DNA of 64,000 nt, taken from the NCBI GenBank assembly GCA_963813645.1, contig CAWEZS010000012.1, positions 225,846-289,845 on the forward strand. Direction: 5' to 3'. The notes under the pieces were generated by a model. That model worked only from the letters and a program-made list of their open reading frames with translations, did not search any database and was not told the origin of the DNA. Positions 13,532 to 46,770 of the stretch are shown here, in pieces. The position numbers and the translations under genes were made by a program. The first letter of the stretch is position 1, and each line of letters starts with the position of its first letter. This DNA comes from Terriglobia bacterium (GTDB lineage Bacteria; Acidobacteriota; Terriglobia; Terriglobales; Acidobacteriaceae).

Positions 13532-14638
13532 ATGGCCCGCCTTTATGGGCGCTGGTCATCCCGCCCATCGATCCAAGCTCGCTCGTCACGCTTGGGCCTA
13601 CCCCGGACCCTGAGAACCCTTATGCTGCCCAAAGAGCAGGCTTTTACCGTTTCATCAATTCTCTTCGTGATTCTGGCTGTGATTTTGATTGCCCCCGCCG
13701 TCCGGGCACAGAGCCCGGTGGACGATGTGCACGTCAGCCCCAGAATCCAGCCTCCTCCGCCCGCTGAGAAAGCGATCATGGATCCATCCCTGAGGACTCA
13801 TACCAAGCCCCTCAAGGTGGATGTGGACCTGGTCCTGGTGCCGGTCACCATTACCGACCCCATGAATCGCCTGGTCACTGGACTGGACAAAGAAAACTTC
13901 ACCCTCTACGAAGGCAAGGATCTGCAGGACATTCGTCACTTCTCCAGTGAAGACGCCCCCGTTTCTCTGGGTGTGATCTTCGACATGAGCGGCAGCATGA
14001 GCAGTAAGATCGAGCGCGCCCGCGAAGCCGTGATCGAGTTTTTCAAGGCGGCCAATCCGCAGGACGAATTCTTCATGATCACCTTCGCCGACAAGCCGGA
14101 GGAGATTTCCGATTTCACCCAGTCGATTGAAGAGATCCAGGGGAAGCTGGTGTACACCGTGCCCAAGGGACGGACGGCCCTGCTCGACGCCATTTATCTC
14201 GGCGTCAGCAAAATGAGGCAGGCCAAGTATCCCAAGAAGGCGCTGCTCGTCATCAGTGATGGTGGCGACAACCACAGCCGGTACACCGAGGGCGAGATCA
14301 AGTCCGTGGTGAAGGAAGCGGACCTATTGATTTATGCCATCGGCCTTTATGACCGTTACCTGTCCACTCCAGAAGAGCAACTGGGCCCCGCCCTGCTGGC
14401 CGACCTCACCGAACTCACGGGAGGGCGCGCTTTTACCATAGACAACCCGAATGATCTGGCCGACGTCTCTACAAAAATAGGGATCGAGCTACGCAACCAA
14501 TATGTGCTGGGATACCGTCCAAAGAATCCAGCGCATGATGGCAAATGGCGTAAAATAAAGGTGAAGCTGCTTCCACCTAAAGGTTTGCCGCCGCTGCGTG
14601 TGTATGCCAGGACGGGTTACTATGCACCTACGGAATAG
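13532..14638 (+). CDS. VWA domain protein, VWFA-related Acidobacterial domain type
   Basis: Signal anchor, MIDAS-like DMSGSM, ISDGGDN, C-terminal RTGYYA. ATG 13532 has GAGG 7 nt upstream. Confidence 0.8.
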   Translation: MARLYGRWSSRPSIQARSSRLGLPRTLRTLMLPKEQAFTVSSILFVILAVILIAPAVRAQSPVDDVHVSPRIQPPPPAEKAIMDPSLRTHTKPLKVDVDLVLVPVTITDPMNRLVTGLDKENFTLYEGKDLQDIRHFSSEDAPVSLGVIFDMSGSMSSKIERAREAVIEFFKAANPQDEFFMITFADKPEEISDFTQSIEEIQGKLVYTVPKGRTALLDAIYLGVSKMRQAKYPKKALLVISDGGDNHSRYTEGEIKSVVKEADLLIYAIGLYDRYLSTPEEQLGPALLADLTELTGGRAFTIDNPNDLADVSTKIGIELRNQYVLGYRPKNPAHDGKWRKIKVKLLPPKGLPPLRVYARTGYYAPTE

Positions 14639-15662
14639 TCGGGTTGCGCCACGGCTGGTCTTCTTCCTGTTCTTGCTCAACCTGGCAGTCGGGGCCCAGA
14701 ATACGGCTCCGCCCGAGGCCCCGCCCCGTAGTTCTCAACCGGCCCCCAGCCAATCCGAGGCTCCGCCTCCAGCCCAGGAAGCGCCGCCGGGGCAAGAACC
14801 GGGCGCCGAACCCGGCGGTTTTGTGTTCCATTCCGACGTGCAAGAGGTTCTGCTGCACGCCACGGTCATCGACGACAAGCAGCGCATGGTCACCAACCTC
14901 GACAAGAATGCTTTCACAGTATTCGAGGATGGCAAGCCCCAAGTCATCAAGTCTTTCCGCCACGAGGACATTCCGATCTCCCTCGGCATCGTGATTGACA
15001 ACTCAGGCTCGATGCGGGAAAAGCGCGCCAAGGTCAACAAGGCGGCATTAAACCTGGTGCGCGCCAGCAACCCGCAGGATGAAGTCTTTGTGGTCAACTT
15101 CAGCGACGAGTTTTTTCTCGATCAGCCCTTCACCAACAAGATCAACCTGCTGCAGAGCGCGCTGGAAAAATACGAGACCCGCGGCGGAACGGCCCTCTAT
15201 GACGCAGTGGTCGCTTCGGCGGACGAGTTGAAGAGGCATGGCAAGCTGCAGAAGAAGATCCTGTTTGTCGTGACCGACGGCGAGGACGATGCCAGCCGCG
15301 AATCGCTGGAGCAGGCAGTGCGACAGTTGCAGGAAGAGAATGGCCCCACGGTCTACTGCATCGGTGTGTTGGGCGAGGAAAGGGCACGACGCGCCAAGCG
15401 CGCCCTGCAAACCATTTCTGAGCGCACCGGAGGAATCGCATTTTTTCCCCGTACGCTGGACGAAGTAGACCAGATCAGCAGCACGGTTGCCCGCGACATT
15501 CGCAATCAGTACACCATCGGTTACAAACCCACGACACCCAAGACCGCGGGCGGATATCGCGCCATCCGGGTCGAGGCCCGCGCGTCCGGACACGGCAAGC
15601 TCACAGTAAGGACCCGCAGCGGCTACTACGCCGGCCAGGAGCAGGCCGCCGGCGGGAATTAG
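14622..15662 (+). CDS. VWA domain protein, VWFA-related Acidobacterial domain type (paralog)
   Basis: DNSGSM, VTDGEDD, C-terminal RSGYYA, proline-rich N-terminal linker. Overlaps the upstream paralog by 17 nt. Confidence 0.8.
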   Translation: MHLRNSRVAPRLVFFLFLLNLAVGAQNTAPPEAPPRSSQPAPSQSEAPPPAQEAPPGQEPGAEPGGFVFHSDVQEVLLHATVIDDKQRMVTNLDKNAFTVFEDGKPQVIKSFRHEDIPISLGIVIDNSGSMREKRAKVNKAALNLVRASNPQDEVFVVNFSDEFFLDQPFTNKINLLQSALEKYETRGGTALYDAVVASADELKRHGKLQKKILFVVTDGEDDASRESLEQAVRQLQEENGPTVYCIGVLGEERARRAKRALQTISERTGGIAFFPRTLDEVDQISSTVARDIRNQYTIGYKPTTPKTAGGYRAIRVEARASGHGKLTVRTRSGYYAGQEQAAGGN

Positions 15663-15664
15663 TC

Positions 15665-15761
15665 AGCACTTAGCAATTGGCAATTAGCACTTGGCCCTTC
15701 CCTGTTCCTGCCTCCTACTTTGTCCGCGTTTGCTGAGTGCCAATTGCTAATTGCCAAGTGC
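15665..15761. repeat. AT-rich heptad hairpin element (AGCACTT AGCAATT GGCAATT AGCACTT ... inverse)
   Basis: The left arm 15665-15695 is the reverse complement (about 24 of 27 nt) of the right arm 15738-15761, with a loop of about 42 nt. Confidence 0.7.
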
Positions 15762-15806
15762 CGCTTCTCCAATTGACGCTCTGCTTCCGCTTCCGTACCC
15801 TGTAGG

Positions 15807-26324: not shown

Positions 26325-26460
26325 CGCCGGCGTCCCTTCGGAACTCAGGGCAGGCTCGCCGGGTGTCCCGAGGGCGTCCCTGTGGAGGACGGGCGTCCCG
26401 CCCGTCGAGCGATGGCTTGTGCACGACGGGCGGGACGCCCGTCCTCCATAGTTCGATGAC
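26321..26460. repeat. composite family C element (GTAGCGCCGGCGTCCC module plus GGAGGACGGGCGTCCCGCCCGTC hairpin)
   Basis: The first module aligns with 28873-28947 (opposite strand). The hairpin arms 26384-26406 / 26425-26447 match the arms at 46663-46728. Confidence 0.7.
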
Positions 26461-27963: not shown

Positions 27964-28227
27964 TTAGCAGGGCTTGCGGATGACGATGTCGCTGTCGTTG
28001 ATAAAGAACTGCACCGAACACTGATCGGAGCCGCAGATTACGGGCAGCAGACCGGCCAGCTGTTTGCGCGTGATGAGGCCCAGAGTGCCGCAGTCGGGAC
28101 AGGCGAGCACGGCCCAGTAGGGATCTTCCTTCTCGCCGACATGGCCGGCATTTTCCAGCACGAAGATGGTGCCGGGCTGCATCTGCTCGGGAATCCACTC
28201 GTTCAGGACGTTCAGTTCTCCAACCAT
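27964..28227 (-). CDS. hypothetical small zinc-ribbon-like protein
   Basis: 87 aa with CPDCG ... CGSDQC cysteine pairs. Sits 45 nt downstream of the MerR gene on the same strand. Confidence 0.5.
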   Translation of the reverse strand: MVGELNVLNEWIPEQMQPGTIFVLENAGHVGEKEDPYWAVLACPDCGTLGLITRKQLAGLLPVICGSDQCSVQFFINDSDIVIRKPC

Positions 28228-28272
28228 CTCGCCTCCCCGGGAGTCAAACTTTTTGGAGCCAAACTTCCCTGC

Positions 28273-28740
28273 CTATGATGCTTTTCTGCGGGCCGCTTGT
28301 GGTGCACTGCCGTTAGCTTTTTTTTCCGCGTTGCGAATTACGGCGCGAACCTGGCGCACAGTGTCGCTGAGACAAACCGCCAGCATGGGCTGACGGGAAT
28401 TCTTGAGGATGTCCACAATCTGCCGCGCGGACGTTTCCAGGTAGAGGGTACGGCCGTCGGTGAGCAGGTGGTAGTCGGACGAGCTGGTAACAGTTTCCGC
28501 CAGACGCTTGCTGAACTCGCGCTGCAAAAAGCGCATGACCTTGCGCACCCGCTGCAGAGAGAAGCCCCTGCGGCGCAGCTCGCAGATGACCGCGACTTCG
28601 GCCAGGTCTTCGTTTGAGTACAGGCGGCGATGTCCTTCGCGCGCTGGGACGACGATGCGGCGCTCGTCCCACCACTGCAACTGGCGCAGCGTGATGCCGG
28701 TCAGGGCCACGACCTCCCGGGATGTGAAGTGCTCCTTCAT
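28273..28740 (-). CDS. MerR family transcriptional regulator
   Basis: N-terminal HTH FTSREVVALTGITLRQLQWWDERRIV...RLYSNEDL. Confidence 0.8.
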   Translation of the reverse strand: MKEHFTSREVVALTGITLRQLQWWDERRIVVPAREGHRRLYSNEDLAEVAVICELRRRGFSLQRVRKVMRFLQREFSKRLAETVTSSSDYHLLTDGRTLYLETSARQIVDILKNSRQPMLAVCLSDTVRQVRAVIRNAEKKANGSAPQAARRKAS

Positions 28741-28751
28741 TAATCCGATGG

Positions 28752-28785
28752 AAATGTTTCAAACATTTTGGATAAAAAATGTTTG
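28752..28785 (-). promoter_or_regulatory. three copies of a 9-mer AAATGTTT(C/G) (two direct, one inverted): candidate operator
   Basis: Plus strand has AAATGTTTC at 28752, inverted AAACATTT at 28761 and AAATGTTTG at 28777. They lie between the predicted -10 and the merR-like ATG. Confidence 0.35.
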
Positions 28786-28789
28786 AGAC

Positions 28790-28817
28790 ATTCTAGGCGC
28801 GGTACGCCTAGTGTCAA
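28790..28817 (-). promoter_or_regulatory. sigma-70-like promoter TTGACA-N16-TAGAAT for the MerR-like gene
   Basis: The reverse complement of 28790-28817 reads TTGACA CTAGGCGTACCGCGCC TAGAAT. The spacer is itself a palindrome (CTAGGCG..CGCCTAG). Confidence 0.5.
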
Positions 28818-28872
28818 TGAAAGATTTGGGTTTCGAGGTGACTAGAGGAGTTCCTCGTTTTGCGTGGGCCTG

Positions 28873-28947
28873 GGCGCTGAGGGCGGGACGCCCTCAGGAC
28901 AGCCGGCGGGCCTGTCCTGAGCGAAGTCGAAGGAACGCCGGCGCTAC
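28873..28947. repeat. family C element (minus orientation), terminus overlapping the thiS stop codon
   Basis: The minus strand reads GTAGCGCCGGCGTTCCTTCGACTTCGCTCAGGACAGGCCCGCCGGCTGTCCTGAGGGCGTCCCGCCCTCAGCGCC, which aligns with 26321-26395. Confidence 0.65.
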
Positions 28948-29147
28948 GAAGTTCCGCCGCCTACGAAGTGGACGATTTCGAGGTGGTCACCTTCGGCCAG
29001 GTTGGTTTCTGTCCACTTGGCTCGCGGGACGATGTCCCGGTTCAGTTCCACCGCCACGCGGTCTTGCTTCATTCCGAGCTGTTCGATCAGCAGGGCCAGG
29101 GTGGTCGGGGCGAAGGTTTGTTCCTGGCCGTTGATGACAATTTTCAT
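28944..29147 (-). CDS. thiS: sulfur carrier protein ThiS (with 2-residue extension after the GG motif)
   Basis: [12 protein letters not shown]...[15 protein letters not shown]. Start set at MKIVING. Confidence 0.8.
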
Positions 29148-29190
29148 TGTCATGATTCTCGCAACTATCGGACGATGGGGCAAGCAGAGG

Positions 29191-29310
29191 CCACGTGGGG
29201 ACAGCCGCCCCCGGCTGTCCGGTCGAGCACTGCTCGACAGTGCTTTTTGACGGCACAAAACTTAGCGGAGCTCTGCTCCGCCGGACAGCCGAGGGCGGCT
29301 GTCCCCACGT
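29191..29310. repeat. family B element (two inverted units, CCACGTGGGGACAGCCGCC...GGCGGCTGTCCCCACGT)
   Basis: The terminal 30 nt are near-perfect inverted repeats, and each unit has a GGACAGCC/GGCTGTCC hairpin. Confidence 0.75.
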
Positions 29311-29317
29311 AGCCTGT

Positions 29318-29905
29318 TTAGGCTTCTACTTTTCTTAGCTGGAACTTGCGGGTAGCAGTGCGGCCGGAGTAGCTGGCCTGCACCAGGACCGACGAGTCGG
29401 GCAATGAGGACTCATCCACTTCAATTCTCATCTCGGTGTCACCGGAGGGGTCGGTGACCACCTGGGCATAGAAAGGAGCGGAATCGGGGCGGGCGAAACG
29501 GATGGTCAGGCGTGCACCAGGGACGCCGGAGCCGCTCTCCGTGACCCGCAACCGCATCGTCAGATTGCGATCGTTGTGCACCGAGTTGGCGTTCAGCCAT
29601 TGCACGTCCAGCTCTTTGACCGCGGCCAGGGTCTCGGGCGTGTCGCGCTTGTCGAGGATGTCGTCCAGATGGCCGTCGCGGATCGCATCAAGAACCAGGC
29701 GATGCTGGTCGCGCAGGCCGTGTTCTTTTTGCTGGTCCGTGAAGCCGCCGGCCAGCTTCTCTCCATAGGGGGTCGCCCGCTTGCCGATGCAACGGCCGCG
29801 GACAAAGACCTGGGTTTGCAGCAGAAGCTCGCTCTCGCGGGCCTCGCTCTGCACATGGTAGACGGTGTCGCCCTGCTTGATGTCGGTGTTGAAGCCGAAT
29901 ATCAT
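29318..29905 (-). CDS. hypothetical protein (N-terminal MIFGFNTDIKQGDTVYHVQSE domain, C-terminal beta-sandwich-like region)
   Basis: 195-aa ORF divergent from the nuo operon. No family recognised. Confidence 0.6.
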   Translation of the reverse strand: MIFGFNTDIKQGDTVYHVQSEARESELLLQTQVFVRGRCIGKRATPYGEKLAGGFTDQQKEHGLRDQHRLVLDAIRDGHLDDILDKRDTPETLAAVKELDVQWLNANSVHNDRNLTMRLRVTESGSGVPGARLTIRFARPDSAPFYAQVVTDPSGDTEMRIEVDESSLPDSSVLVQASYSGRTATRKFQLRKVEA

Positions 29906-30002
29906 GCGCTCTTCTTCACTATCACAATTTCACTCTTACGAAAGCGATCGTGCGTATCAATTAAACAGTTTTAACGAAACTGCAACAAAGTCAGCCGGTC
30001 GC

Positions 30003-30036
30003 TTGACACTACCAGTAGCGAAATCTAATCTAGAAT
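30003..30036 (+). promoter_or_regulatory. candidate nuo operon promoter TTGACA-N17-TAATCT (a TAGAAT box follows immediately)
   Basis: 30003-30008 TTGACA and 30026-30031 TAATCT. TAGAAT at 30031-30036 would need a 22-nt spacer. Confidence 0.4.
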
Positions 30037-30076
30037 GTTTACTTGGCGCTTGGCGCGAATTATATATAGCTCTCCC

Positions 30077-30472
30077 ATGCCCGACAATTACTTCGTCCGC
30101 TACCTGCCACTCCTGATCCACTTTATAGTCGCGGGAGCCCTCGCGGGCGTAATCGTCTTTCTGTCCTGGCTGATCGGGTATCGCCGCCCTACGCGGGCCA
30201 AAATGTCGCCCTACGAGTGTGGGATGACCCCCATCGGGGATGCCCGAGAGCGTTTCTCGGTCAAATTCTATATGGTGGGCATGCTGTTCATCCTGTTTGA
30301 CATTGAAGCCATCTTTCTTTATCCCTGGGCCGTGATCCTGCGCGATCTTAAGATGTTTGGTTTCTGGGAGATGCTGGTTTACATCGGCATCATGCTGGTG
30401 GGCTTTTTCTACGTATGGAAGAAAGGCGCTCTCGACTGGGGTAAACCTTCAGCCCGCCGAGGCCAGGTCTGA
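30077..30472 (+). CDS. nuoA: NADH-quinone oxidoreductase subunit A
   Basis: PYECG...FDIEAIFLYPW motif. Start set at MPDNYF. Confidence 0.9.
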   Translation: MPDNYFVRYLPLLIHFIVAGALAGVIVFLSWLIGYRRPTRAKMSPYECGMTPIGDARERFSVKFYMVGMLFILFDIEAIFLYPWAVILRDLKMFGFWEMLVYIGIMLVGFFYVWKKGALDWGKPSARRGQV

Positions 30473-30969
30473 TGCCGTTTCCACCCGCCATCACCGATCT
30501 GGAGCAACTGAAGAACCATCCAGCCGTGGCCAAGCTGTTGGCTTGGAATTCGACTGCGGTCAAGGGCGCGAAGTTCGATCGCGACGAGATGAGTATTTAC
30601 GTGGAGCGGTCGCTTATCCGTGACGCTTGTATGCTGCTCCGCGACGATGAGGATTGTCAGTTCAATTATCTTGCCGACGTCACCTGCGTGGATTGGTTTC
30701 CTTCGGAACCGCGCTTCGAGGTCGTTTACCACCTGCTGTCGATTCCCAAGAAAGAGCGCGTGCGATTGAAGGTTCGGCTTGACGGCAGCAGCCCGGCGCT
30801 GGATTCGGTGACACAGGTCTGGCCCGGTGCGAATTACTTCGAACGCGAGGTGTTTGATTTGTTTGGCGTGCGTTTTGCCGGACACCCCTACCTGCGGCGG
30901 ATTGTGATGCCGGAAGATTGGGAAGGCCATCCCTTGCGTAAAGACTATCCGGTGGAGGGCTACCGCTAG
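30472..30969 (+). CDS. nuoC: NADH-quinone oxidoreductase subunit C
   Basis: WPGANYFEREVFDLFGVRFAGHP...LRKDYP. The ATG overlaps the nuoA TGA by 1 nt. Confidence 0.95.
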   Translation: MPFPPAITDLEQLKNHPAVAKLLAWNSTAVKGAKFDRDEMSIYVERSLIRDACMLLRDDEDCQFNYLADVTCVDWFPSEPRFEVVYHLLSIPKKERVRLKVRLDGSSPALDSVTQVWPGANYFEREVFDLFGVRFAGHPYLRRIVMPEDWEGHPLRKDYPVEGYR

Positions 30970-30977
30970 GTCCCGCC

Positions 30978-32183
30978 ATGGCTCATCTTTCCCCCGCACC
31001 CTCGCTTGAACCCGGTCAGGACCGCACCATGATCCTGAACATGGGTCCACATCATCCCTCGACCCATGGCGTGCTTCGACTGCTGCTCGAGATTGACGGC
31101 GAAAATATTGTCCGCATCATGCCCGACATCGGGTTTCTGCACACTGGAATTGAGAAGACCTGCGAGGCCAAGTTCTACCAGCAAGTTGTCCCGCTGACCG
31201 ACCGTATCGACTACCTGTGCCCCCTGACCAATAATCTTTGCTACGTGCTCGCGGTTGAAAAGCTGCTGGGCCTGGAGATTCCTCCGAAAGCGCAGTGGAT
31301 GCGGGTGATGTTGAACGAGCTCACGCGCATCAATTCGCACCTGGTCTGGCTGGGGACGCATGCGCTTGATATCGGGGCAATGACCGTTTTTCTTTATTGC
31401 TTCCGCGAGCGTGAAGACATCCTGCGGCTGTTCGAGATGGTCAGCGGACAGCGCATGATGACTTCGTACTTCCGCATCGGCGGGCTGGCGCTGGAACCAC
31501 CACTGGGCTTTTTCGAACGCGTGCAGGATTTCGCGACGCGCTTTCCGTCGAAGGTCGATGAGTACGAAAATTTACTGACCGGAAATCCTATCTGGGGAAT
31601 GCGGACCAAAGGGGTGGCGCGGATCACGGCAGAAGACGCCGTCGCTCTGGGAGCCAGCGGGCCGACGTTGCGGGGCAGTGGAGTGGATTTCGATTTGCGC
31701 CGCGACATGCCCTACTCCAGCTATGAGAAATTCGAATTCAAGGTGCCGGTATCGCAGGACGGCGACGTATTTGCCCGCTACGCGTGCCGGGTGGCGGAAC
31801 TACGGGAATCCATCGCCATAGTGCAGCAGGCGCTCGATGGCATGCCGGAAGGCCCCATCAAGGCAACGGCGCCAAAGGTGATCCTGCCCGACCGCGAGAT
31901 GATGAAGACGCAAATGGAAGCGCTCATCTATCACTTCAAAATCATCACGGAAGGCTTCGCCGTGCCCGCGGGCGAGGTCTACCAGGCGGTGGAATCGCCG
32001 CGCGGCGAAATGGGATACTACGTGGTCAGCGACGGCACCGCGAAACCGTATCGGGTCCACATGCGTTCGGCTTGTCTGGCTAATCTGCAGGCGCTGCCTA
32101 CGATGTGCGAGGGCCGGCTGCTGGCGGATGTGGTGGCTGCGATCGGCAGCATTGACATTGTGCTAGGCGAAATTGACCGGTAG
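30978..32183 (+). CDS. nuoD: NADH-quinone oxidoreductase subunit D
   Basis: NMGPHHPSTHGVLRL...GFLHTGIEK...ESPRGEMGYY...DIVLGEIDR. Confidence 0.95.
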   Translation: MAHLSPAPSLEPGQDRTMILNMGPHHPSTHGVLRLLLEIDGENIVRIMPDIGFLHTGIEKTCEAKFYQQVVPLTDRIDYLCPLTNNLCYVLAVEKLLGLEIPPKAQWMRVMLNELTRINSHLVWLGTHALDIGAMTVFLYCFREREDILRLFEMVSGQRMMTSYFRIGGLALEPPLGFFERVQDFATRFPSKVDEYENLLTGNPIWGMRTKGVARITAEDAVALGASGPTLRGSGVDFDLRRDMPYSSYEKFEFKVPVSQDGDVFARYACRVAELRESIAIVQQALDGMPEGPIKATAPKVILPDREMMKTQMEALIYHFKIITEGFAVPAGEVYQAVESPRGEMGYYVVSDGTAKPYRVHMRSACLANLQALPTMCEGRLLADVVAAIGSIDIVLGEIDR

Positions 32184-32224
32184 GGATTGAGTAATTGGGG
32201 AATTTGGTAATTGAGTAATTAAAC
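32184..32224. repeat. left arm of AT-rich octad element (GTAATTGN x4)
   Basis: GGGATTGAGTAATTGGGGAATTTGGTAATTGAGTAATTAAAC. 32186-32205 pairs with 32608-32630. Confidence 0.6.
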
Positions 32225-32228
32225 ATCC

Positions 32229-32599
32229 ATGGTGATCGCGATGAAAACCCAGCCGGAGCAACTCAGGGACCGGACAAAATCGTTCGCATTGCGCATCATT
32301 CGCCTTTTTCCATCGCTTCCCTACAAGCCTGACGCACAGGTCCTGGGTAAGCAGCTGTTACGATGCGGAACCTCAGTTGCCGCTAACTACCGGGCAGTTT
32401 GTCGTGCAAGATCGAAGGCAGAATTCGTTGCCAAGATGGAATTGTGGTTGAAGAGGCAGACGAGACTATCTTGTGGTTGGAACTGTTGACCGAATCGGGG
32501 ATTATTTCCGAGGAGAAAACACGAGAGCTGCTGACGGAGGCGCGGGAGTTGACGGCGATATTCACGGCATCACAACACACGGCCAGAAGCGTAGCTTAG
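32229..32599 (+). pseudogene. four-helix-bundle protein (23S rRNA intervening-sequence protein family), split by a 1-nt frameshift near 32438
   Basis: ORF 32229-32489 gives ...LRDRTKSFALRIIRLF...QVLGKQLLRCGTSVAANYRAVCRARSKAEFVAKM. ORF 32399-32599 continues in another frame with IVVEEADETILWLELLTESGII... Together they match the family consensus. Confidence 0.7.
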
Positions 32600-32602
32600 C
32601 GC

Positions 32603-32632
32603 CTTAAAATTGCACAATTACTCAATTCTTAG
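32603..32632. repeat. right arm of AT-rich octad element, ending at the nuoE ATG
   Basis: CTTAAAATTGCACAATTACTCAATTCTTAG is immediately followed by ATG 32633. Confidence 0.6.
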
Positions 32633-33109
32633 ATGAAGTTTTCGGAACAATTCGAAACGCGCTTCGCCGAGATGCTGACGCACTATCCGACCAAGAGGTC
32701 GGTGCTCGTCCCGACGCTGCTGTATGCGCAGGACGAGGCTGGCTACCTCTCCGATGAAGTGATCGACGAGATTGCCGGTCGACTGGAACTGACATCTCTC
32801 GAAGTGCGCAACGTGATCAGCTACTACTCCATGCTGACCACCAAGCCGCGAGGCAAGTACAACGTTCAGGTCTGCACCAACATTGCCTGCATGCTGCGCG
32901 GCGGTGAAGAACTTCTGGAACATTGCGAGAAGAAACTCGGCATCGGACACAAGCAGACCACGCCCGACGGTCTTTTCTGCCTGGAAGAAGTGGAGTGCAT
33001 CGGAGGCTGTAGTTGGGCTCCGGCGGTGCAGGTGAATTACGCTTTTTATGAGAACCTGACCCCGGAGAAGATGGATAGAGTGCTGGACGAGTACAGGAAG
33101 AAGAATTGA
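32633..33109 (+). CDS. nuoE: NADH-quinone oxidoreductase subunit E
   Basis: 2Fe-2S thioredoxin-like fold: VCTNIACMLRG...ECIGGCSWAP. Confidence 0.95.
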   Translation: MKFSEQFETRFAEMLTHYPTKRSVLVPTLLYAQDEAGYLSDEVIDEIAGRLELTSLEVRNVISYYSMLTTKPRGKYNVQVCTNIACMLRGGEELLEHCEKKLGIGHKQTTPDGLFCLEEVECIGGCSWAPAVQVNYAFYENLTPEKMDRVLDEYRKKN

Positions 33110-33203
33110 GTAATTGGGGAAATTGAGTAATTGTGTAATTTGGAAGACGGAGCTGTCAGGATATTTTTCAAATTACTCAATTACTAAATTACCCAATTAC
33201 TAG
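33104..33203. repeat. AT-rich octad hairpin element between nuoE and nuoF
   Basis: GAGTAATTGGGGAAATTGAGTAATTGTGTAATTTGGAA - loop - TTCAAATTACTCAATTACTAAATTACCCAATTACTA. The arms are about 36 nt with few mismatches, and the nuoE TGA lies in the first unit. Confidence 0.8.
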
Positions 33204-33211
33204 ATGCCACC

Positions 33212-34519
33212 ATGGCTGATCTAGTTTCCCATCCCGATGAAGTAAAGGTTGTCACCCGGCGGTTTGGCCTGGGTGCGACCAATATTGATCGCTACCTGGA
33301 GCTTGACGGCTACAAGGCGGTGCAGAAGGCCTTGGGCATGGGAGCGGATGGCATCGTCAACGAGGTCAAGAACTCCGGCTTGCGCGGGCGCGGGGGCGCG
33401 GGGTTCAGCACCGGCCTGAAGTGGTCGTTCGTACCCAAGCAAGCGTCGAAGCCGAAATATATTTTGTGCAATGGCGACGAGAGCGAGCCCGGCACGTGTA
33501 AAGACCGCCTGATTTTTGAGCACGATCCGCACGCGGTGATCGAAGGCGTCATGATCGCCGGGCTGGCGGTGGGATCGAAGACCGGCTACATCTACGTTCG
33601 CGGTGAATACCGCTATCTTCTCGAAATTGTGCAGAAGGCGATTGCCGATGCTTACGCGCGTGGCTTTCTGGGCAAGAACATTTTTGGGAGCGGGCAGGAC
33701 TTCGATATTTACTGGCACGGGGGCGCGGGCGCGTACGAAGTGGGTGAAGAATCGGCCCTGATGGAATCGCTCGAAGGCAAGCGCGGCATCCCTCGCATCA
33801 AGCCTCCCTTCCCTGCGGTGGTTGGGCTGTGGGGCGGGCCGACGGTAATTAACAATGCTGAAACATTGGCCAGCGTGCCGCACATTATTCTGGGCGGGGC
33901 GGAGTGGTACGCCAAGCTGGGCCCGCCGAAAAATGGCGGGACGCGGCTGTTCTGTCTCAGCGGACACGTCAAGAAGCCCGGAGTTTACGAGCTGCCGATG
34001 GGATACAACCTTAGAAAGATGATCTTCGAGGTGGGCGGCGGAATTCCCAACGGACGCGCGCTTAAGGCAGTAGTGCCGGGCGGATCGAGTACGCCGATAT
34101 TGAAGTCCGACGAGATCGATATCGCCATGGATTTCGACAGCGTTGCCAAAACCGGATCCATGCTGGGATCGGGTGGCGTGGTCATCCTCGACGACACAAC
34201 CTGCATAGTCAAATTTGCCTTGCGAACCATGAAGTTTTACCAGCACGAGAGCTGCGGCTGGTGCATCCCATGCCGCGAAGGCACCGACTGGCTGAAGAAG
34301 ACGCTGATTCGCTTCCACTCCGGCGGCGGAGTGAAAAAAGATATCGACAACATGTACTACCTGTCGGAAAACATGCTGGGCCGGACCTTCTGTCCGCTGG
34401 GCGATGCCGCGGCCATGCCGACCATGGCATTCATCAAAAAGTTCCGGCAGGAGTTTGAAGATCATTTGGACGGCAAGCCGTGTCCGTTTGAGAAGGCGGC
34501 GGAGCCGGTGCTGGCGTAG
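33212..34519 (+). CDS. nuoF: NADH-quinone oxidoreductase subunit F
   Basis: GLRGRGGAGFSTGLKW, CNGDESEPGT, ESCGWCIPCREG. Confidence 0.95.
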   Translation: MADLVSHPDEVKVVTRRFGLGATNIDRYLELDGYKAVQKALGMGADGIVNEVKNSGLRGRGGAGFSTGLKWSFVPKQASKPKYILCNGDESEPGTCKDRLIFEHDPHAVIEGVMIAGLAVGSKTGYIYVRGEYRYLLEIVQKAIADAYARGFLGKNIFGSGQDFDIYWHGGAGAYEVGEESALMESLEGKRGIPRIKPPFPAVVGLWGGPTVINNAETLASVPHIILGGAEWYAKLGPPKNGGTRLFCLSGHVKKPGVYELPMGYNLRKMIFEVGGGIPNGRALKAVVPGGSSTPILKSDEIDIAMDFDSVAKTGSMLGSGGVVILDDTTCIVKFALRTMKFYQHESCGWCIPCREGTDWLKKTLIRFHSGGGVKKDIDNMYYLSENMLGRTFCPLGDAAAMPTMAFIKKFRQEFEDHLDGKPCPFEKAAEPVLA

Positions 34520-34525
34520 CAAATC

Positions 34526-34617
34526 GGGTAATTGGGTAATTTTGTAATTGAGTAATTTGAAAACGCACGGCGGGGGGATGATTTCAAATTACACAATTAC
34601 TAAATTTCTCAATTCCC
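34526..34617. repeat. AT-rich octad hairpin element between nuoF and nuoG
   Basis: GGGTAATTGGGTAATTTTGTAATTGAGTAATTTGAAA - loop - TTTCAAATTACACAATTACTAAATTTCTCAATTCCC. GTAATT recurs with a period of 8 nt. Confidence 0.8.
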
Positions 34618-34627
34618 AAATTTAATC

Positions 34628-37006
34628 ATGGCTGACGTAAACATCACGGTAGACGGCAAGAAGGTCACGGCTCCGGCTGGGACTCTGCTGATTGAAGCCT
34701 GCAAGACTGTGGGCATCGAAGTACCTTCGTTTTGCTACTACCCGAATCTCTCGCTGCAGGGCGCTTGCCGCATGTGCCTGGTAAAAATCGAGAAGATGCC
34801 GAAGCTGCAGACTGCGTGCACCACGGTCGTTGGCGAAGGCATGGTTGTGATTACGGACAGCGATGAAGTGCATCAGGCACGCAAGGGCATGGTGGAATTG
34901 CTGCTAGGTAATCATCCTCTTGATTGTCCGGTGTGCGATGCCGGGGGCGAGTGCGAATTGCAGGACATGACATTCTCTTACGGCGCCGCGGAGTCGAAGT
35001 ACATGGAACCCAAGAACCACAAAGAGGAGCAGCAGTGGTCTCCCGTGGTGTACTTCGACCGGCCGCGCTGCATCCTTTGTTATCGCTGCGTGCGGGTGTG
35101 CGGCGAGGGCATGGACGTTTGGGCACTGGGAGTACAGAATCGCGGCGTGGGTTCGATCATCGCACCCAATAAAGAAGACCACCTGGAGTGCGAAGAGTGC
35201 GGCATGTGCATTGACATCTGTCCGGTAGGCGCGCTGACTTCGGGGGCTTACCGTTATAAGACGCGTCCCTGGGAGATGAACCACGTCGGCACCACCTGTA
35301 CCCATTGCGCGGACGGATGCAAGACCACGCTGGGCGTGCGGCGTTCCGAAACCGGTATGGAGATTGTGCGCGGAGACAATCGCGACAAAAGCGGCATCAA
35401 CGGCGATTTCCTCTGCATCAAGGGCCGCTACGCATTTGATTTTGCCAACCGCGAGGACCGCCTGACCCAGCCGCTGATTCGTAAAGATGGACAACTGGTC
35501 CCGGCTACCTGGGAAGCGGCGTTTGAACTGATCGGAAAACGCTTCAAGGAAGCTCGCGATCAAAATGGCGGGCAGGCGATAGGGGTCGTAGGTTCAAACC
35601 GCACCACCAACGAAGAGAATTATCTCTTGCAGAAGTTCGCTCGCGTGGTTTTACAAACCAATAACATCGACCATCACCGCACAGCGGACTTCCCTGCATT
35701 TGCCGCGGCGCTTGGAGGCAAGCCAGAATCCGCCGCCAGCATGCGCGATGTGTTCAATGCGCCGGCAATTCTGCTGATTGGAAACGATCCAACGGAACAG
35801 CATCCGTTGCTAGCTTGGCAGATTCGGAATAACGTTCGACTGCACAACGCGAAACTGTATGTGGTGAATTCTGCGGACATCAAACTTCACCGGCAGGCGG
35901 CTGGGTTTTTGCGGATTCCCGCGGGTACGGAGGGGCGGTTCACCGCCTTCCTGGCGGGAGATGATTCTGCGGCGAATGCCATCACCAGCCATGTGGCCGC
36001 GGGCGGCTCGCCCGCGCAGCCCAGCCCTGGCGAGTTTCGCGACCAGCTTCGCGGCGAGCAGAACCTGGTCATCATTTTCGGCGCCGAGATTCGCGGTGGC
36101 GATATTGCTTCCCTGGTCAAGTTTGGCTCGGGCATTCCTGGAGCAAAGTTTTTGTGTCTCGCCGACTATGCCAACTCTCGGGGCGCGGCCGACATGGGCC
36201 TCTATCCCGACTTGCTGCCCGGCTATCATCCGATCGCCGACTCTGGAAAATTCCATGAGGAGTGGGGCGGAGTTCCGCAAACGACCGGATTGACCTTGCC
36301 GGAGATGGTTGAGAGCGCCGGCTCGGGAAAATTGAAAGCGCTCTACGTGGTAGGCGCCAATCCAGTGGGAAGGTTCGGCATCGATCCTTTTGTTTTTTCG
36401 CAGAGTTTCGTGGTGGTACAGGACATGTTCCTGACCGAAACTGCGGTTTTGGCCGACGTGGTTTTGCCGGCGGCCAACGCCTACGAGAAATCAGGGACGT
36501 TCACCAATACTTGCGGCGATCTGCAACTGGTGAAGAAGGCAGGAGAGGTCAGCGGCAGCAAGTCCGATTTCGAGATGATCGTACGCGTCGCGGATGCGAT
36601 GGGGACGGACATCCACAAACTGGTTCCGTTCGGCCGGGGCGAGGCCGCGGACATGGGACAATCGCGCGGGGCACAATCGGGAGAAGCTGACCGGCATGGT
36701 GTCTGGCTCGAGGCGCACGGGCTGGAGCCGAAGATGAGTCCGTTTGATCCCATGGCGATTCTCGACGAAATTCAACGGCTGGTGCCGGGATACGAAGTTT
36801 TGCGGATGAACCTGCTGGCGGGTAACGATCAGCACACGACACTGGTAGGCAGCACGACCGGAGCTTCGCAGGATCCAGCGCTGATTGCTCCCGCGAATGA
36901 CAACCTGTTTAGCTCGGGTACGTTGGGGCGCTATTCGCGGACGCTGAACTCGGTGATGGAGAACCACAACCGACAGCCGGTGGAATCTGAAGTTGCAGCG
37001 GACTGA
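34628..37006 (+). CDS. nuoG: NADH-quinone oxidoreductase subunit G
   Basis: 2Fe-2S and 4Fe-4S cysteine motifs (CRMCLV, HPLDCPVCDAGGEC, CILCYRCVRVC, CEECGMCIDICP) plus a molybdopterin-like domain. Confidence 0.95.
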   Translation: MADVNITVDGKKVTAPAGTLLIEACKTVGIEVPSFCYYPNLSLQGACRMCLVKIEKMPKLQTACTTVVGEGMVVITDSDEVHQARKGMVELLLGNHPLDCPVCDAGGECELQDMTFSYGAAESKYMEPKNHKEEQQWSPVVYFDRPRCILCYRCVRVCGEGMDVWALGVQNRGVGSIIAPNKEDHLECEECGMCIDICPVGALTSGAYRYKTRPWEMNHVGTTCTHCADGCKTTLGVRRSETGMEIVRGDNRDKSGINGDFLCIKGRYAFDFANREDRLTQPLIRKDGQLVPATWEAAFELIGKRFKEARDQNGGQAIGVVGSNRTTNEENYLLQKFARVVLQTNNIDHHRTADFPAFAAALGGKPESAASMRDVFNAPAILLIGNDPTEQHPLLAWQIRNNVRLHNAKLYVVNSADIKLHRQAAGFLRIPAGTEGRFTAFLAGDDSAANAITSHVAAGGSPAQPSPGEFRDQLRGEQNLVIIFGAEIRGGDIASLVKFGSGIPGAKFLCLADYANSRGAADMGLYPDLLPGYHPIADSGKFHEEWGGVPQTTGLTLPEMVESAGSGKLKALYVVGANPVGRFGIDPFVFSQSFVVVQDMFLTETAVLADVVLPAANAYEKSGTFTNTCGDLQLVKKAGEVSGSKSDFEMIVRVADAMGTDIHKLVPFGRGEAADMGQSRGAQSGEADRHGVWLEAHGLEPKMSPFDPMAILDEIQRLVPGYEVLRMNLLAGNDQHTTLVGSTTGASQDPALIAPANDNLFSSGTLGRYSRTLNSVMENHNRQPVESEVAAD

Positions 37007-37045
37007 AAACTCTTTCTACACACTTTTATAGGGCAGGACGTATAC

Positions 37046-37070
37046 GCTGAGGGCGGGACGCCGGCGCTAC
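37046..37070. repeat. minimal family C remnant (minus strand GTAGCGCCGGCGTCCCGCCCTCAGC)
   Basis: Joins the two ends seen in the 28873-28947 copy. Lies in the nuoG-nuoH spacer. Confidence 0.45.
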
Positions 37071-37082
37071 CTGGGATAACGT

Positions 37083-38123
37083 TTGAATATCACCACCTTC
37101 ATTATCGTTTCTTTCATCAAGACTGTGCTGGCACTGTTTGTGTTGCTAACGGCGGTGGCGTATACAGTCTGGCTAGAGCGCAAAGTTGTCGGCCACATGC
37201 AGAACCGCTGGGGACCCACTCGAGTGGGTCCGTTTGGCTTGCTGCAGCCGCTGGCGGACGGAATTAAGTTCCTGTTCAAGGAAGACCTGACGCCGCCGCA
37301 CGTGTACCGGCCGCTGTATATCGCGGCGCCGATCATTGCTGTCATGTGCGCCCTGACTTCAATCGCAGTGATTCCGGTGGGCAACTGGATCACGATCGGC
37401 AGCCTGCACATTCCGCTGCAGATCACGGATGTCAACATCGGATTGCTGATCATTCTGGGCGTTACTTCGCTCGGAGTGTACGGCGTCGCGCTGGCGGGTT
37501 GGTCATCGAACAGCAAGTATTCCCTGCTGGGTGGGCTGCGGGCCAGCGCGCAGATGATCAGTTACGAGATTTCGCTCGGGCTTTCCCTGGTGGGCGTGCT
37601 GATGCTTACCGGCAGCTTCAGCCTGCGAGATATCGTGGACGCGCAGAGCGGGACGTTTTGGTGGATTGTTCCGCGCTGGAACATTTTCTACGGCGGGCAG
37701 TTCATCGCTTTCTTTATTTATCTGATGTCGGCGTATGCGGAAACCAACCGCATCCCGTTCGATCTGCCAGAGGCGGAGACCGAACTGGTCGCGGGATATC
37801 ACACCGAGTACAGCGCCATGAAGTTTGCCATGTTTTTCATGGCCGAATACGCCAACATGATTACTGTCGCGGCCGTGGCTTCGCTCCTGTTTTTAGGCGG
37901 CTGGCATGGCCCGGTGTTTGGGCCACCGATCTTGCAGGCGCTTCTGCCAGTCTTTTGGTTTGCGTTAAGGATCTTTGGCTTTCTGTTTCTATATATATGG
38001 GTGCGCGGCACCTTGCCCCGGTTTCGTTATGATCAGCTCATGGCATTCGGGTGGAAATTTCTTTTGCCGCTGGCGATCGCAAATCTGGTGGTGACGGCGC
38101 TGGTGGTGGCGTTGCGGGCTTGA
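37083..38123 (+). CDS. nuoH: NADH-quinone oxidoreductase subunit H
   Basis: ERKVVGHMQNRWGPTRVGPFGLLQPLADG...AETNRIPFDLPEAETELVAGYHTEYS. TTG start. Confidence 0.95.
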   Translation: MNITTFIIVSFIKTVLALFVLLTAVAYTVWLERKVVGHMQNRWGPTRVGPFGLLQPLADGIKFLFKEDLTPPHVYRPLYIAAPIIAVMCALTSIAVIPVGNWITIGSLHIPLQITDVNIGLLIILGVTSLGVYGVALAGWSSNSKYSLLGGLRASAQMISYEISLGLSLVGVLMLTGSFSLRDIVDAQSGTFWWIVPRWNIFYGGQFIAFFIYLMSAYAETNRIPFDLPEAETELVAGYHTEYSAMKFAMFFMAEYANMITVAAVASLLFLGGWHGPVFGPPILQALLPVFWFALRIFGFLFLYIWVRGTLPRFRYDQLMAFGWKFLLPLAIANLVVTALVVALRA

Positions 38124-38126
38124 TAA

Positions 38127-38162
38127 TCAGTTTCTAGTTTCCTGTTTCTGGTTTCCAGTTTC
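38127..38162. repeat. five tandem heptads NNGTTTC abutting the nuoJ ATG
   Basis: CAGTTTC TAGTTTC CTGTTTC TGGTTTC CAGTTTC ATG. Confidence 0.7.
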
Positions 38163-38681
38163 ATGACTCATCTGATCGTATTTCTGTTCTTCGGGGCGTT
38201 GTGCGTGGCGGGGGCGGTAAACCTGCTGGTGCAACGGCATCCCATCAACAGCGCGCTCTCGTTGGTGGTGGTGATGGCGTCGCTGGCGGTGGAATATCTT
38301 CTGCTGGGAGCGGAGTTCGTCGCGGCAGTGCAAGTCATCGTGTACGCAGGCGCGGTCATGGTGTTGTTTGTGTTTGTCATCATGCTGTTGAACGCGGGAG
38401 AGGAAGAGCGCACTAAAGGAAGTCGCGTAGCGCTCCTGTTTGGAGTCCCCGGAGTGCTGGTGGGCAGCGTGCTGGTGGGTTGGGTGCTGATCGAACGCAC
38501 TGGCAGCCAGACGGTATCCGCCGGGGCTCTACCCGGCGCGCCGCGGACCATTGGCTGGCTGCTGTTTCACAATTTCCTTCTCCCGTTTGAAGTGACTTCG
38601 ATTCTGGTGCTGATCGCCATTATGGGCGCCGTCGTTCTGGCCAGCCATCCCGACACGGACTCAGGAAAGAAGGAGGGCTGA
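38163..38681 (+). CDS. nuoJ: NADH-quinone oxidoreductase subunit J
   Basis: 172 aa, with the hydrophobic pattern and VQVIVYAGAVMVLFVFVIMLL typical of NuoJ. Confidence 0.9.
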   Translation: MTHLIVFLFFGALCVAGAVNLLVQRHPINSALSLVVVMASLAVEYLLLGAEFVAAVQVIVYAGAVMVLFVFVIMLLNAGEEERTKGSRVALLFGVPGVLVGSVLVGWVLIERTGSQTVSAGALPGAPRTIGWLLFHNFLLPFEVTSILVLIAIMGAVVLASHPDTDSGKKEG

Positions 38682-38983
38682 TGGTGCCGATCTCGTACTA
38701 CCTCATTCTCAGCGGGATTCTGTTTGCCTGCGGCGTGACCGGTTTTCTGATCAAGCGCAACATCATCAGCATTTTCATGTCGATTGAACTGATGTTGAAT
38801 GGCGTGAATCTTTCATTCGTCGCATTTGCCGCGCAGTGGCATGCCTTGAGCGGACAAATATTCGTATTCTTCGTGATGGTGGTGGCGGCGGCCGAGGCGG
38901 CGGTGGGACTGGCGATCATCATCGCCGTTTACCGCACCCGTGAAACTCTGAACGTCGACCAGGTGGATTTGCTCAAACTATGA
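38681..38983 (+). CDS. nuoK: NADH-quinone oxidoreductase subunit K
   Basis: 100 aa: MSIELMLNGVNL...AAAEAAVGLAI. 1-nt overlap with the nuoJ stop. Confidence 0.95.
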   Translation: MVPISYYLILSGILFACGVTGFLIKRNIISIFMSIELMLNGVNLSFVAFAAQWHALSGQIFVFFVMVVAAAEAAVGLAIIIAVYRTRETLNVDQVDLLKL

Positions 38984-45662: not shown

Positions 45663-45696
45663 CAGATGGGACCTTGCTTCTGCATTATGGCATCCG

Positions 45697-45834
45697 CCAC
45701 GAACCACGTGGGGACAGCCGCCCTCGGCTGTCCGGCGGAGCGAAGCTCCGCTTGTCTTTGAGGGCGGCAAGAACCTGTCGAGCTTCGCTCGACTGGACAG
45801 CCGAGGGCGGCTGTCCCCACGTGGTTCGTGGTGG
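45697..45834. repeat. family B element (two complete inverted units)
   Basis: CCACGAACCACGTGGGGACAGCCGCCCTCGGCTGTCCGG... / ...CTGGACAGCCGAGGGCGGCTGTCCCCACGTGGTTCGTGGTGG. Confidence 0.8.
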
Positions 45835-46614: not shown

Positions 46615-46662
46615 GAGTCGTCCTTGCTTACGGTTTTGTTAGACGAATTATAAAGTGTTTAA

Positions 46663-46728
46663 GTGGAGGACGGGCGTCCCGCCCGTCATACACAGGCCAT
46701 CGCCGGACGGGCGGGACGCCCGTCCTCC
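46663..46728. repeat. family C hairpin (GGAGGACGGGCGTCCCGCCCGTC - 17 nt - GACGGGCGGGACGCCCGTCCTCC)
   Basis: Perfect 23-nt inverted arms in a divergent promoter region. Confidence 0.75.
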
Positions 46729-46770
46729 GCTCGGTATAACATCTTCAGATCATGTAACGGAGGGACAGCT

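Follow-up and report, generated by a model that had tools for sequence, protein, structure and literature searches.

A four-helix-bundle gene framed by pairing tandem-repeat arms between nuoD and nuoE of an acidobacterial complex I operon, and its relatives at other operon junctions

The stretch of DNA analysed here (64,000 nucleotides, hereafter the window) comprises positions 225,846 to 289,845 of contig CAWEZS010000012.1 from assembly GCA_963813645.1 of a Terriglobia bacterium (Acidobacteriota; Terriglobales; Acidobacteriaceae), and has a GC content of 58%. It includes the respiratory complex I genes nuoD, nuoE, nuoF and nuoG (Table 1). The spacer between nuoD and nuoE is 449 nt long (32184-32632) and holds a gene of the four-helix-bundle family between two arms built of short repeated units, whereas the nuoE/F and nuoF/G spacers hold shorter hairpins that enclose no open reading frame (ORF). 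The nuoD/E spacer opens with about five 8-nt units of the GTAATTGN type, two exact and three degenerate (32183-32222), and closes with about three inverse units (32607-32631), which continue into the nuoE ATG. Coordinates, Pfam matches and a repeat search agreed with the initial annotation, which was made from the sequence alone, in ending nuoD at 32183, starting nuoE at 32633 and placing arms of such units around the spacer; the annotation had, on the other hand, counted only four opening units. The stem that the arms could form has at its base the TAG (32181-32183) with which nuoD ends. No promoter-like or terminator-like site was found inside 32184-32632, and an Rfam search of 28000-42000 at permissive E-values returned no rRNA and nothing above threshold. 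Sub-threshold matches to miRNA families, including a plant family at the nuoE/F hairpin, were taken as chance.

Table 1 Coordinates of features at the nuoD-nuoG locus in the window
Feature	Position	Strand	Evidence or remark
nuoD (complex I 49-kDa subunit)	30978..32183	+	Pfam PF00346, E 1.7e-117
Left (5') arm, five tandem 8-nt units GGGATTGA GTAATTGG GGAATTTG GTAATTGA GTAATTAA	32183..32228	+	33% GC
Four-helix-bundle gene (PF05635/TIGR02436)	32241..32599, alternative ATG 32229	+, sense to nuo	profile matches; frameshifted
Right (3') arm, inverse units AAATTGCA CAATTACT CAATTCTT AG	32603..32632	+	abuts nuoE ATG directly
nuoE	32633..33109	+	Pfam PF01257
ORF-less hairpin, nuoE/nuoF spacer	33102..33206	+	fold energy vs shuffles
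nuoF	33212..34519	+	Pfam PF01512, PF10589
ORF-less hairpin, nuoF/nuoG spacer	34521..34623, arms 34521-34562 and 34582-34623	+	42-nt inverted repeat, 83% complementary
nuoG	34628..37006	+	Pfam PF13510, PF10588, PF00384

The two arms of the nuoD/E spacer are complementary to each other. The repeat search returned a 25-nt inverted repeat with 84% complementarity (32181-32205 and 32607-32631), and the 12 contiguous pairs noticed earlier (ATTGAGTAATTG with CAATTACTCAAT) are contained in it. When 32150-32660 was folded, the arms were paired in both the minimum free energy and the centroid structures. The arm duplex alone reached -27.2 kcal/mol against -13.0±3.1 kcal/mol for shuffles (z -4.6), with 1 of 500 shuffles as good. 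The same duplex on the antisense strand reached only -16.7 kcal/mol, because several of the pairs are G·U. The comparison with shuffled sequence that the initial annotation had proposed for this region therefore came out in favour of the arms but not of the region as a whole: the entire 511-nt fold was no better than its shuffles (z -0.35), an ordinary value because the arms are a small part of what was folded. The motif GTAATTG occurs 14 times in the window where 3.9 copies are expected, a count reached by none of 100 shuffles, and 10 of the 14 fall in the nuoD/E, nuoE/F and nuoF/G spacers.

The hairpins of the nuoE/F and nuoF/G spacers are about 100 nt long and are built from the same units as the nuoD/E arms, in a similar order. 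In nuoE/F, about four GTAATTGN-type units and about four NCAATTAC units enclose a 20-nt loop, and the nuoE stop codon TGA (33107-33109) falls within the first unit (AATTGAGTAATTG). This hairpin has a folding energy of -37.1 kcal/mol (z -6.35), which none of 200 shuffles equalled, and its sense strand folds better than its antisense strand (-36.6 vs -30.5 kcal/mol); the nuoF/G hairpin has -34.1 kcal/mol (z -6.80). The ORF-less hairpins and the gene-carrying element share an inner boundary (...TTGAAAA / TTTTCAA...), and relatives carry the gene at the same junctions, which supports the earlier suggestion that the hairpins are miniature derivatives of the nuoD/E element; the two forms may be separated by deletion or by insertion. 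The loop of the nuoF/G hairpin can be aligned no more than loosely with the 3' end of the filled element of a close relative (locus L001), a resemblance that is suggestive of an origin by deletion and no more. If the spacers were simply AT-rich and of low complexity, without functional pairing and without any family behind them, the unremarkable fold of the whole nuoD/E spacer would be expected. Such a chance resemblance is hardly credible, given the arm duplex, the two short hairpins (z -6.4 and -6.8) and the GTAATTG count, and it is refuted by the family-wide permutation and sliding controls described below.

The assignment of the enclosed ORF to the four-helix-bundle family was upheld by profile searches, but the ORF is frameshifted in the window, which had been overlooked. 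Frame 1, with its start at 32229 or 32241, covers about 68 profile positions and meets a stop at 32487-32489, and the C-terminal half lies in another frame that ends at 32597-32599. Relative to L207, a 692-bp metagenome contig that is near-identical over the spacer and encodes an intact homolog with 99% identity (P0001), one T is missing between 32437 and 32438 (AAGATTGG in L207, AAGATGG here). Because L207 is so similar and differs within the ORF by this one T, the ORF must have been broken very recently by mutation, unless the assembly is in error here. A programmed frameshift was rejected, as there is no slippery sequence at AAGAT/GGAATT and other broken copies stop elsewhere. Three nuoD/E copies (L142, L185 and L187) carry independent in-frame stops at profile positions of about 72-79, near the position of the frameshift in the window (about 68).

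After repair of the frame, the protein has 119 amino acids (123 from the ATG at 32229) and a pI of 9.1, and it matches nearly the full PF05635 and TIGR02436 profiles (61.4 bits with a cut-off of 33.8, and 88.8 bits with a cut-off of 24, respectively). The nearest solved structure is PDB 2RLD (E 1.2e-17), and sequence similarity to it, taken with PMC4990558, suggests that the fold is a four-helix bundle. The GC content at third codon positions is 0.59, against 0.69-0.74 in the nuo genes. Five of about 100 copies, the one in the window included, are disrupted and about 95 are intact. The median dN/dS of intact copies is 0.06 at nuoD/E, 0.046 at nuoF/G and 0.09 outside nuo operons, so that the protein is under strong purifying selection. 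PF05635-type proteins as a whole are numerous, with 9,842 protein clusters (50% identity) matching at E ≤ 1e-3.

Every one of the homologs with 79-99% identity that we looked up lay between nuoD and nuoE. 'Terriglobales bacterium' is the name given for these homologs, and metagenome-assembled genomes (MAGs) of Sulfotelmatobacter, Angelobacter and Acidobacteriaceae supplied related loci. A metagenome scan contributed 80 loci beyond these homologs. Over all loci, the gene occupied nuoD/E about 35 times, nuoF/G about 16-17 times, nuoE/F once (L182), the region upstream of nuoA five times and sites outside nuo about 40 times. All copies at nuoD/E, nuoE/F and nuoF/G are in sense orientation. The recurrent junctions outside nuo were lolE/lolD, nrdR with a dehydrogenase of the isocitrate-isopropylmalate type, RND pump/adaptor, dipeptidase/endonuclease IV and trpB/trpA; among callable cases at such sites, 27 of 28 had a co-directional gene upstream and 18 of 27 had one downstream.

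The same junctions were found in different states among relatives. At nuoD/E (47 loci), four had no spacer or an overlap, two an unrelated spacer, four an ORF-less hairpin and 37 a hairpin with the gene. At nuoE/F (43 loci) the corresponding numbers were three, a few, about 36 and one, and at nuoF/G (33 loci) one, about five, about ten and about 17. Each nuo junction can accordingly be empty, short or long, and a nuo operon may have one, two or no copies of the gene; L001, whose NuoD is 99% identical to that of the window, has a second copy at nuoF/nuoG, where the window has an ORF-less hairpin. In a neighbour-joining tree of 91 intact copies, a large nuoD/E clade and a sister nuoF/G clade were recovered, which points to vertical inheritance at each of these sites. 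Outside the main clades, nuoD/E was filled by at least four further lineages (at least five in total) and nuoF/G by at least two (at least three in total), and one nuoD/E copy (L101) nests among the copies upstream of nuoA. According to the tree, distinct lineages have filled the same junctions independently. The copies upstream of nuoA lie on the minus strand about 600 nt upstream of nuoC, hence before nuoA (L131 2327-2683, L141 402-757, L142 2262-2618, L143 3-260 and L161 428-784). They cluster with some nuoD/E copies in the tree, and the one in L141 is broken. Two loci, L136 and L143, have two elements each, of different arm types.

Given the conserved nuoD/nuoE position in many Terriglobales and the strong purifying selection, the protein might be taken for a component that complex I has acquired in this lineage, either an accessory subunit or a factor for its assembly, with the arms as its private regulatory signals. 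We consider this very improbable. Close paralogs sit in lol, trp, RND efflux and nrdR/dehydrogenase operons, and Bacteroidaceae copies in ara, aromatic amino-acid and V-ATPase operons; the number of copies per nuo operon and the junctions they occupy differ, some copies are broken, and the family is also found in rRNA intervening sequences (IVSs) and in diversity-generating retroelements (DGRs).

Arms of the same kind accompany the gene elsewhere, an outcome that favours the initial annotation, and they frame nearly all of about 100 related copies from Terriglobales. Across about 96 related copies at nuo and other sites, the 70-nt flanks mostly paired better than shuffles, with typical z values of -3 to -12. 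The unit sequence varies by lineage, and each left arm is complementary to its own right arm; the matching units include GTAATTG/CAATTAC, GCGATCG (GYGATYG)/CGATCGC, GTCATTG/CAATGAC, GGTAAGTT/AACTTACC and GGGTCATCG/CGATGACCC. RNAalifold, applied to 28 orthologous nuoE/F hairpins, returned no consensus structure because the number of units varies and the register of columns is ambiguous. We therefore opted for three alignment-free tests, namely arm swapping, a stem-anchored count of pairs and strand asymmetry. On average, arms paired at -35.7 kcal/mol with their own partner, at -30.5 kcal/mol with an arm from another junction of the same locus and at -26.5 kcal/mol with arms of other loci. In the stem-anchored count (63 elements × 24 pairs, each anchored on the sequence's own duplex prediction and drawn from related sequences), 74.1% of cells were canonically paired, with 4-6 pair types in every column. 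When right arms were permuted, the value fell to 43.7±2.0% and none of 500 permutations reached the observed one; sliding the register gave 33-45%. The two arms thus co-vary across the family.

Gene-carrying elements paired better on the sense strand in 29 of 42 cases (p 0.0013), and ORF-less hairpins (n=31) had no such asymmetry (17 vs 14, p 0.54), so that selection at the RNA level is shown for the long form only. The arms diverge less (p 0.13-0.27) than the 4-fold-degenerate sites of the enclosed ORF (0.59) in all 251 of 251 pairs, in a comparison in which repetitive arms align easily and pairs are not independent. We also considered that the units, whose length is not divisible by three and which contain TAA or TGA, could serve as three-frame stops. 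The effect was modest only: of 96 left arms, 49 closed every reading frame (mean 2.28 frames vs 1.96 in shuffles), and right arms were depleted in stops (1.40 vs 1.66 in shuffles).

At the 89 hairpin-bearing nuo junctions, the stem usually extends from stop codon to start codon. The first paired base lies inside the upstream stop codon or at most 3 nt after it in 65 of the 89, the downstream start codon begins within 5 nt of the last paired base in 67, and the median distances are -1 to +2 nt. The stop codon often falls within the first unit (TTGAGTAATTG), just as the last one (CTCAATGGCT) is often overlapped by the ATG. No Shine-Dalgarno-like sequence was found before nuoE, nuoF or nuoG, in contrast to the cassette gene, which is usually preceded by AAGGA or GAGG at a distance of 6-10 nt. 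At empty nuoD/E junctions the stop and start codons overlap (ATGA/GTGA), and comparison of empty with filled junctions indicates that the element itself appears to supply the upstream stop codon. Stop-to-start bridging as a general trait of such hairpins was unsupported, as most of the ORF-less hairpins dispersed elsewhere are not tightly bracketed.

This geometry is what would be expected if the hairpins primarily served the host, either by bridging stop and start codons for termination-reinitiation coupling, by stabilising the mRNA, or by setting NuoE/F/G stoichiometry in the manner of repetitive extragenic palindromic (REP) sequences and the mosaic elements (BIMEs) composed of them, the gene being a secondary passenger. 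The lack of Shine-Dalgarno-like sequences before the nuo genes and their presence before the cassette gene fit this explanation, as do the overlapping codons of empty nuoD/E junctions, which would represent the coupled state, and the great excess of ORF-less over gene-carrying hairpins, the former being present at nuoE/F in about 36 of 43 relatives. Furthermore, trpB/trpA, a classically coupled pair, is among the sites. We nevertheless regard host service as rather unlikely to be the primary role. Dispersed ORF-less hairpins are generally not bracketed by stop and start codons and their flanking genes are co-directional at about the baseline frequency (about 72%), some relatives have no spacer or unrelated GC-rich hairpins at the same junctions, and in Bacteroidaceae the right arm stops 12-25 nt before the ATG. 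It would also leave unexplained why a single gene family occupies the loops in two phyla.

Hairpins without the gene reach far beyond it. A scan for GTAATTNNGTAATTNNGTAATT, with one genome per species, returned at least 119 loci. Among the matches listed, about half were from Acidobacteriota and about a quarter from Chloroflexota, with the rest from Bacteroidota, Nitrospiraceae and others; seven overlapped nuo genes and three carried a four-helix-bundle gene, as judged with a profile built from close acidobacterial relatives, which may miss divergent members. Most of these matches were ORF-less hairpins, a few were pure tandem arrays, and the genes flanking the hairpins were co-directional in about 72% of callable cases. 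That proportion is close to the genomic baseline. Given this flank orientation, and since exact bracketing by stop and start codons is no general trait, the short form resembles in its behaviour a repeat of the REP type or a miniature inverted-repeat transposable element (MITE). In a Chloroflexota MAG (L092 173-577), about 310 nt of AT-rich DNA with no credible ORF lie between an arm of five GTAATTGA units and its inverse; this may be decayed or different cargo. The pure tandem arrays include L012, L017, L023, L047 and L083, from Bacteroidota, Chloroflexota and Rhodoferax MAGs, in which an 8-nt unit (GGTAATTG or GCGTAATT) is repeated 4-12 times and the inverse arm is lacking.

The gene-carrying form recurs in a second phylum. 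Bacteroidaceae homologs of 2RLD lie in sense orientation between an aldolase-II gene (araD) and araA, between an aminotransferase gene and a DAHP synthase-chorismate mutase gene, and between V-ATPase A and B genes. Their arms are tandem heptamers, (TGACAAT)n starting from the upstream stop codon and (ATTGTCA)n ending 12-25 nt before the next ATG, and the arm duplexes have energies between -28 and -61 kcal/mol, with z values of -7 to -12 and no equal among 200 shuffles. The ATTG/CAAT core of the units is conserved across the phyla. The araD/araA copy of Bacteroides thetaiotaomicron is presumably BT_0352. In the supplement to a transcriptome of this species, TransTermHP 'terminators' are given just after BT_0353 and BT_0352, both flagged FALSE (PMC7366714). 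In Flavobacterium columnare, a 366-nt gene for a 'four helix bundle protein' lies between gmk and nadD and has been listed as part of a phage region (PMC5524665).

The dispersal of the short form raises the alternative of a miniature transposon acting at the DNA level. The arms would be terminal inverted repeats that offer multiple binding sites to an enzyme encoded elsewhere, either a transposase or a recombinase. Of the two forms, the short would then be a MITE and the long would carry a cargo gene, with pairing in RNA as a by-product. Several features fit: inverted repeats composed of several direct sub-repeats, ends common to long and short forms, many dispersed copies across genomes and phyla (three in the window) that recur at new sites, and ORF-less hairpins without strand asymmetry. 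The cross-phylum ATTG/CAAT core and the slow divergence of the arms relative to synonymous sites would suit a protein-binding site. We consider such a transposon quite unlikely, however, since no target-site duplication could be recognised and no transposase was found in or beside any element examined. Gene-carrying elements favour pairing of the sense strand through G·U pairs, cargo at the three internal nuo junctions is always in sense, which a DNA transposon does not require, and lineage-specific changes of the units are tolerated while complementarity is kept.

Among known systems, the closest counterparts are rRNA IVSs that carry an S23p ORF, such as those of Coxiella burnetii, Leptospira, Brucella and the Xanthomonas type, in which a PF05635/S23p gene lies in the loop, in sense with the host transcript. 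The IVS in 23S helix 45 of Coxiella burnetii is 428 nt long. Its terminal stem measures 28 bp, the S23p ORF that it carries in sense is in decay, and its 5' arm, where RNase III cuts, contains 3-4 tandem GACAGAT heptamers, in a number that varies among strains (PMC4990558). The likeness to an rRNA IVS that the initial annotation had seen in the layout is borne out by this element: the size class is the same (428 vs 449 nt), the termini are complementary (28 bp there, a 25-nt inverted repeat here), and the 5' arm has short tandem direct repeats. In both cases the ORF is prone to decay, and the distribution is sporadic, with evidence of transfer. RNase III excises the IVSs of Coxiella, Salmonella, Leptospira and alphaproteobacteria, their origin is stated to be unclear, and the ORF product has in an old hypothesis been taken for a mobility component (PMC4990558).

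There are, on the other hand, clear differences. IVSs are inserted in helices 9, 25 or 45 of 23S rRNA or in 16S rRNA, whereas the host here is a polycistronic mRNA, between nuoD and nuoE, so that the location in an rRNA gene that defines IVSs is lacking. An IVS replaces an rRNA tetraloop and the stem here joins a stop to a start codon. The Coxiella ORF is apparently unexpressed, in contrast to the cassette gene, which is usually preceded by a Shine-Dalgarno-like signal and whose protein is under strong purifying selection. Unlike rRNA IVSs, the nuo elements can be present in several copies per operon and have ORF-less short forms. Excision by RNase III has been demonstrated for IVSs and is predicted for the nuo cassette only by analogy.

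Other repeat families resemble parts of the design. Correia elements of Neisseria (CREE/NEMIS) are likewise short, dispersed intergenic inverted repeats that are co-transcribed and fold into hairpins; RNase III can bind and cleave these in mRNAs, and the elements influence how adjacent genes are expressed (PMC2649163). They differ from the nuo cassette in having a defined target-site duplication, no coding capacity and unique inverted repeats rather than arrays; they are confined to Neisseria, and no long form with a conserved gene is known. REP sequences and REPINs, the latter the usual model for hairpin repeats dispersed in genomes, are abundant extragenic hairpin palindromes, often within operons, that evolve as families within genomes (PMC3116915). 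The ORF-less hairpins are REP-like in their distribution. In contrast to the nuo hairpins, REPs are about 20-40 nt long, GC-rich, free of tandem-unit arrays and linked to RAYT transposases, and no genes lie in their loops. Among proteins of the DGR-associated Avd type, bAvd is a basic nucleic-acid-binding pentamer. The pI of the cassette protein may be set beside this basic character. Avd and the cassette protein belong to homologous four-helix-bundle families, PF05635 being Avd-like (PMC10053308). Neither a reverse transcriptase nor template/variable repeats were present beside any copy examined, the neighbours being nuoC-G or housekeeping operon genes. As for the repeat units, cyanobacterial short tandemly repeated repetitive (STRR) arrays consist of degenerate intergenic heptamers, the copy number of which varies by slippage. 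The P6b stem-loop of the Nostoc tRNA-Leu intron is reported to be a stem of degenerate tandem 7-nt units (PMC4476775), likewise variable in number by slippage. Neither P6b nor STRR arrays are known to enclose a protein gene, and both differ from the nuo cassette in sequence and host context.

Taking the evidence together, we think it probable, though with considerable reserve, that the nuoD/E spacer is a hitchhiking cassette of the IVS type, that is, a four-helix-bundle gene in a hairpin with tandem-unit arms, co-transcribed with the operon and probably processed by RNase III. Such a cassette, without a promoter of its own and in sense at a gene junction, would be transcribed as part of the host operon. 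Its arms would pair in the transcript and form a stem from the upstream stop codon to a few nucleotides before the downstream start, so that the insert of about 400 nt would be shut off as a side-loop and the host cistrons would be adjacent again, presumably to the benefit of the operon. By analogy with the homologous rRNA IVSs, the stem is probably a substrate of RNase III, and a cut there would free the cassette RNA and divide the operon transcript into segments. The family would then be a semi-selfish hitchhiker with long (gene-carrying) and short (ORF-less) forms that re-occupy the same junctions. Arms and cargo may be exchanged at junctions that are already occupied, for which recombination between similar arms would be the simplest route. 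In the window, the nuoD/E copy would have just been inactivated by the 1-nt deletion, or be mis-assembled, and the nuoE/F and nuoF/G hairpins would represent the short form.

Several observations weigh against the hitchhiking cassette. Strong long-term purifying selection and vertical inheritance in the main nuoD/E and nuoF/G clades also fit a gene that benefits its host. Cutting the mRNA just before nuoE, which has no Shine-Dalgarno sequence, might harm rather than spare nuoE translation. The ordinary fold of the whole spacer and the absence of strand asymmetry in ORF-less hairpins belong here as well. Empty and filled nuoD/E, nuoE/F and nuoF/G junctions differ by no consistent direct repeat that would mark a target-site duplication, and no mobility enzyme was identified, with no transposase among the neighbours examined (loci up to about 10 kb). 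The similarity of arms and that of proteins are only moderately correlated (Spearman 0.57 overall and 0.44 for pairs at different nuo sites). Strict co-inheritance of arms and ORF was likewise unsupported, given these coefficients and a small group contrast (38.2 vs 35.7).

A bolder extension, which we put forward tentatively and hold to be doubtful, is that PF05635 genes are the cargo of mobile intervening sequences that span phyla and may sit in any strongly transcribed RNA, rRNA IVSs being a special case of elements that mainly occupy operon junctions. Spread or retention would be promoted by the Avd-like protein, acting on the arms of its own cassette with their conserved ATTG/CAAT core, and ORF-less hairpins would be non-autonomous derivatives. 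RNA might even serve as the intermediate of spread, if some other element provided the reverse transcriptase in trans, in the way known for Avd in DGRs. We found no description of four-helix-bundle cassettes at operon junctions or of these repeat strings; the literature search was incomplete, and this is not proof of novelty.

The same cassette design, with a four-helix-bundle gene, a stem of about 28-35 bp made of 7-8-nt repeats and a total of about 450 nt, is found in ordinary operons of Acidobacteriota and Bacteroidota (complex I, trp, lol, ara and V-ATPase), so that rRNA would be just one of the habitats of a much larger family of elements to which the IVSs belong. Where rRNA IVSs and their conserved ORF come from and what they do are questions that have stood since about 1990. 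Bacteroides thetaiotaomicron offers a tractable system, for which genetics, differential RNA-seq and a crystal structure (2RLD, the same or a near-identical protein) exist. Annotation pipelines name these genes 'four helix bundle protein' without context, and the arms are taken for terminators by programs that predict hairpins. Should the stems prove to be RNase III sites or coupling bridges, they would be a natural design for inserting a gene without breaking an operon.

Other hairpins are present in the window. A tandem-unit hairpin at 15666-15761, composed of the 7-nt units GCACTTA, GCAATTG, GCAATTA and GCACTTG and inverse units and enclosing no ORF, begins 4 nt past the stop of an ORF at 14598..15662(+); the fold of 15641-15790 has -52.6 kcal/mol. 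It is another flavour of the same design as the nuo hairpins. Two GC-rich families of inverted repeats each occur twice, one with arms of 48-55 nt (CCACGTGGGGACAGCCGCCC...GGCTGTCCGG; 29188-29315 and 45694-45834) and one with arms of 26-31 nt (GGAGGACGGGCGTCCCGCCCGTC; 26380-26451 and 46662-46731). At nuoF/G of L127 and L165, other GC-rich hairpins take the place of the AT-rich one.

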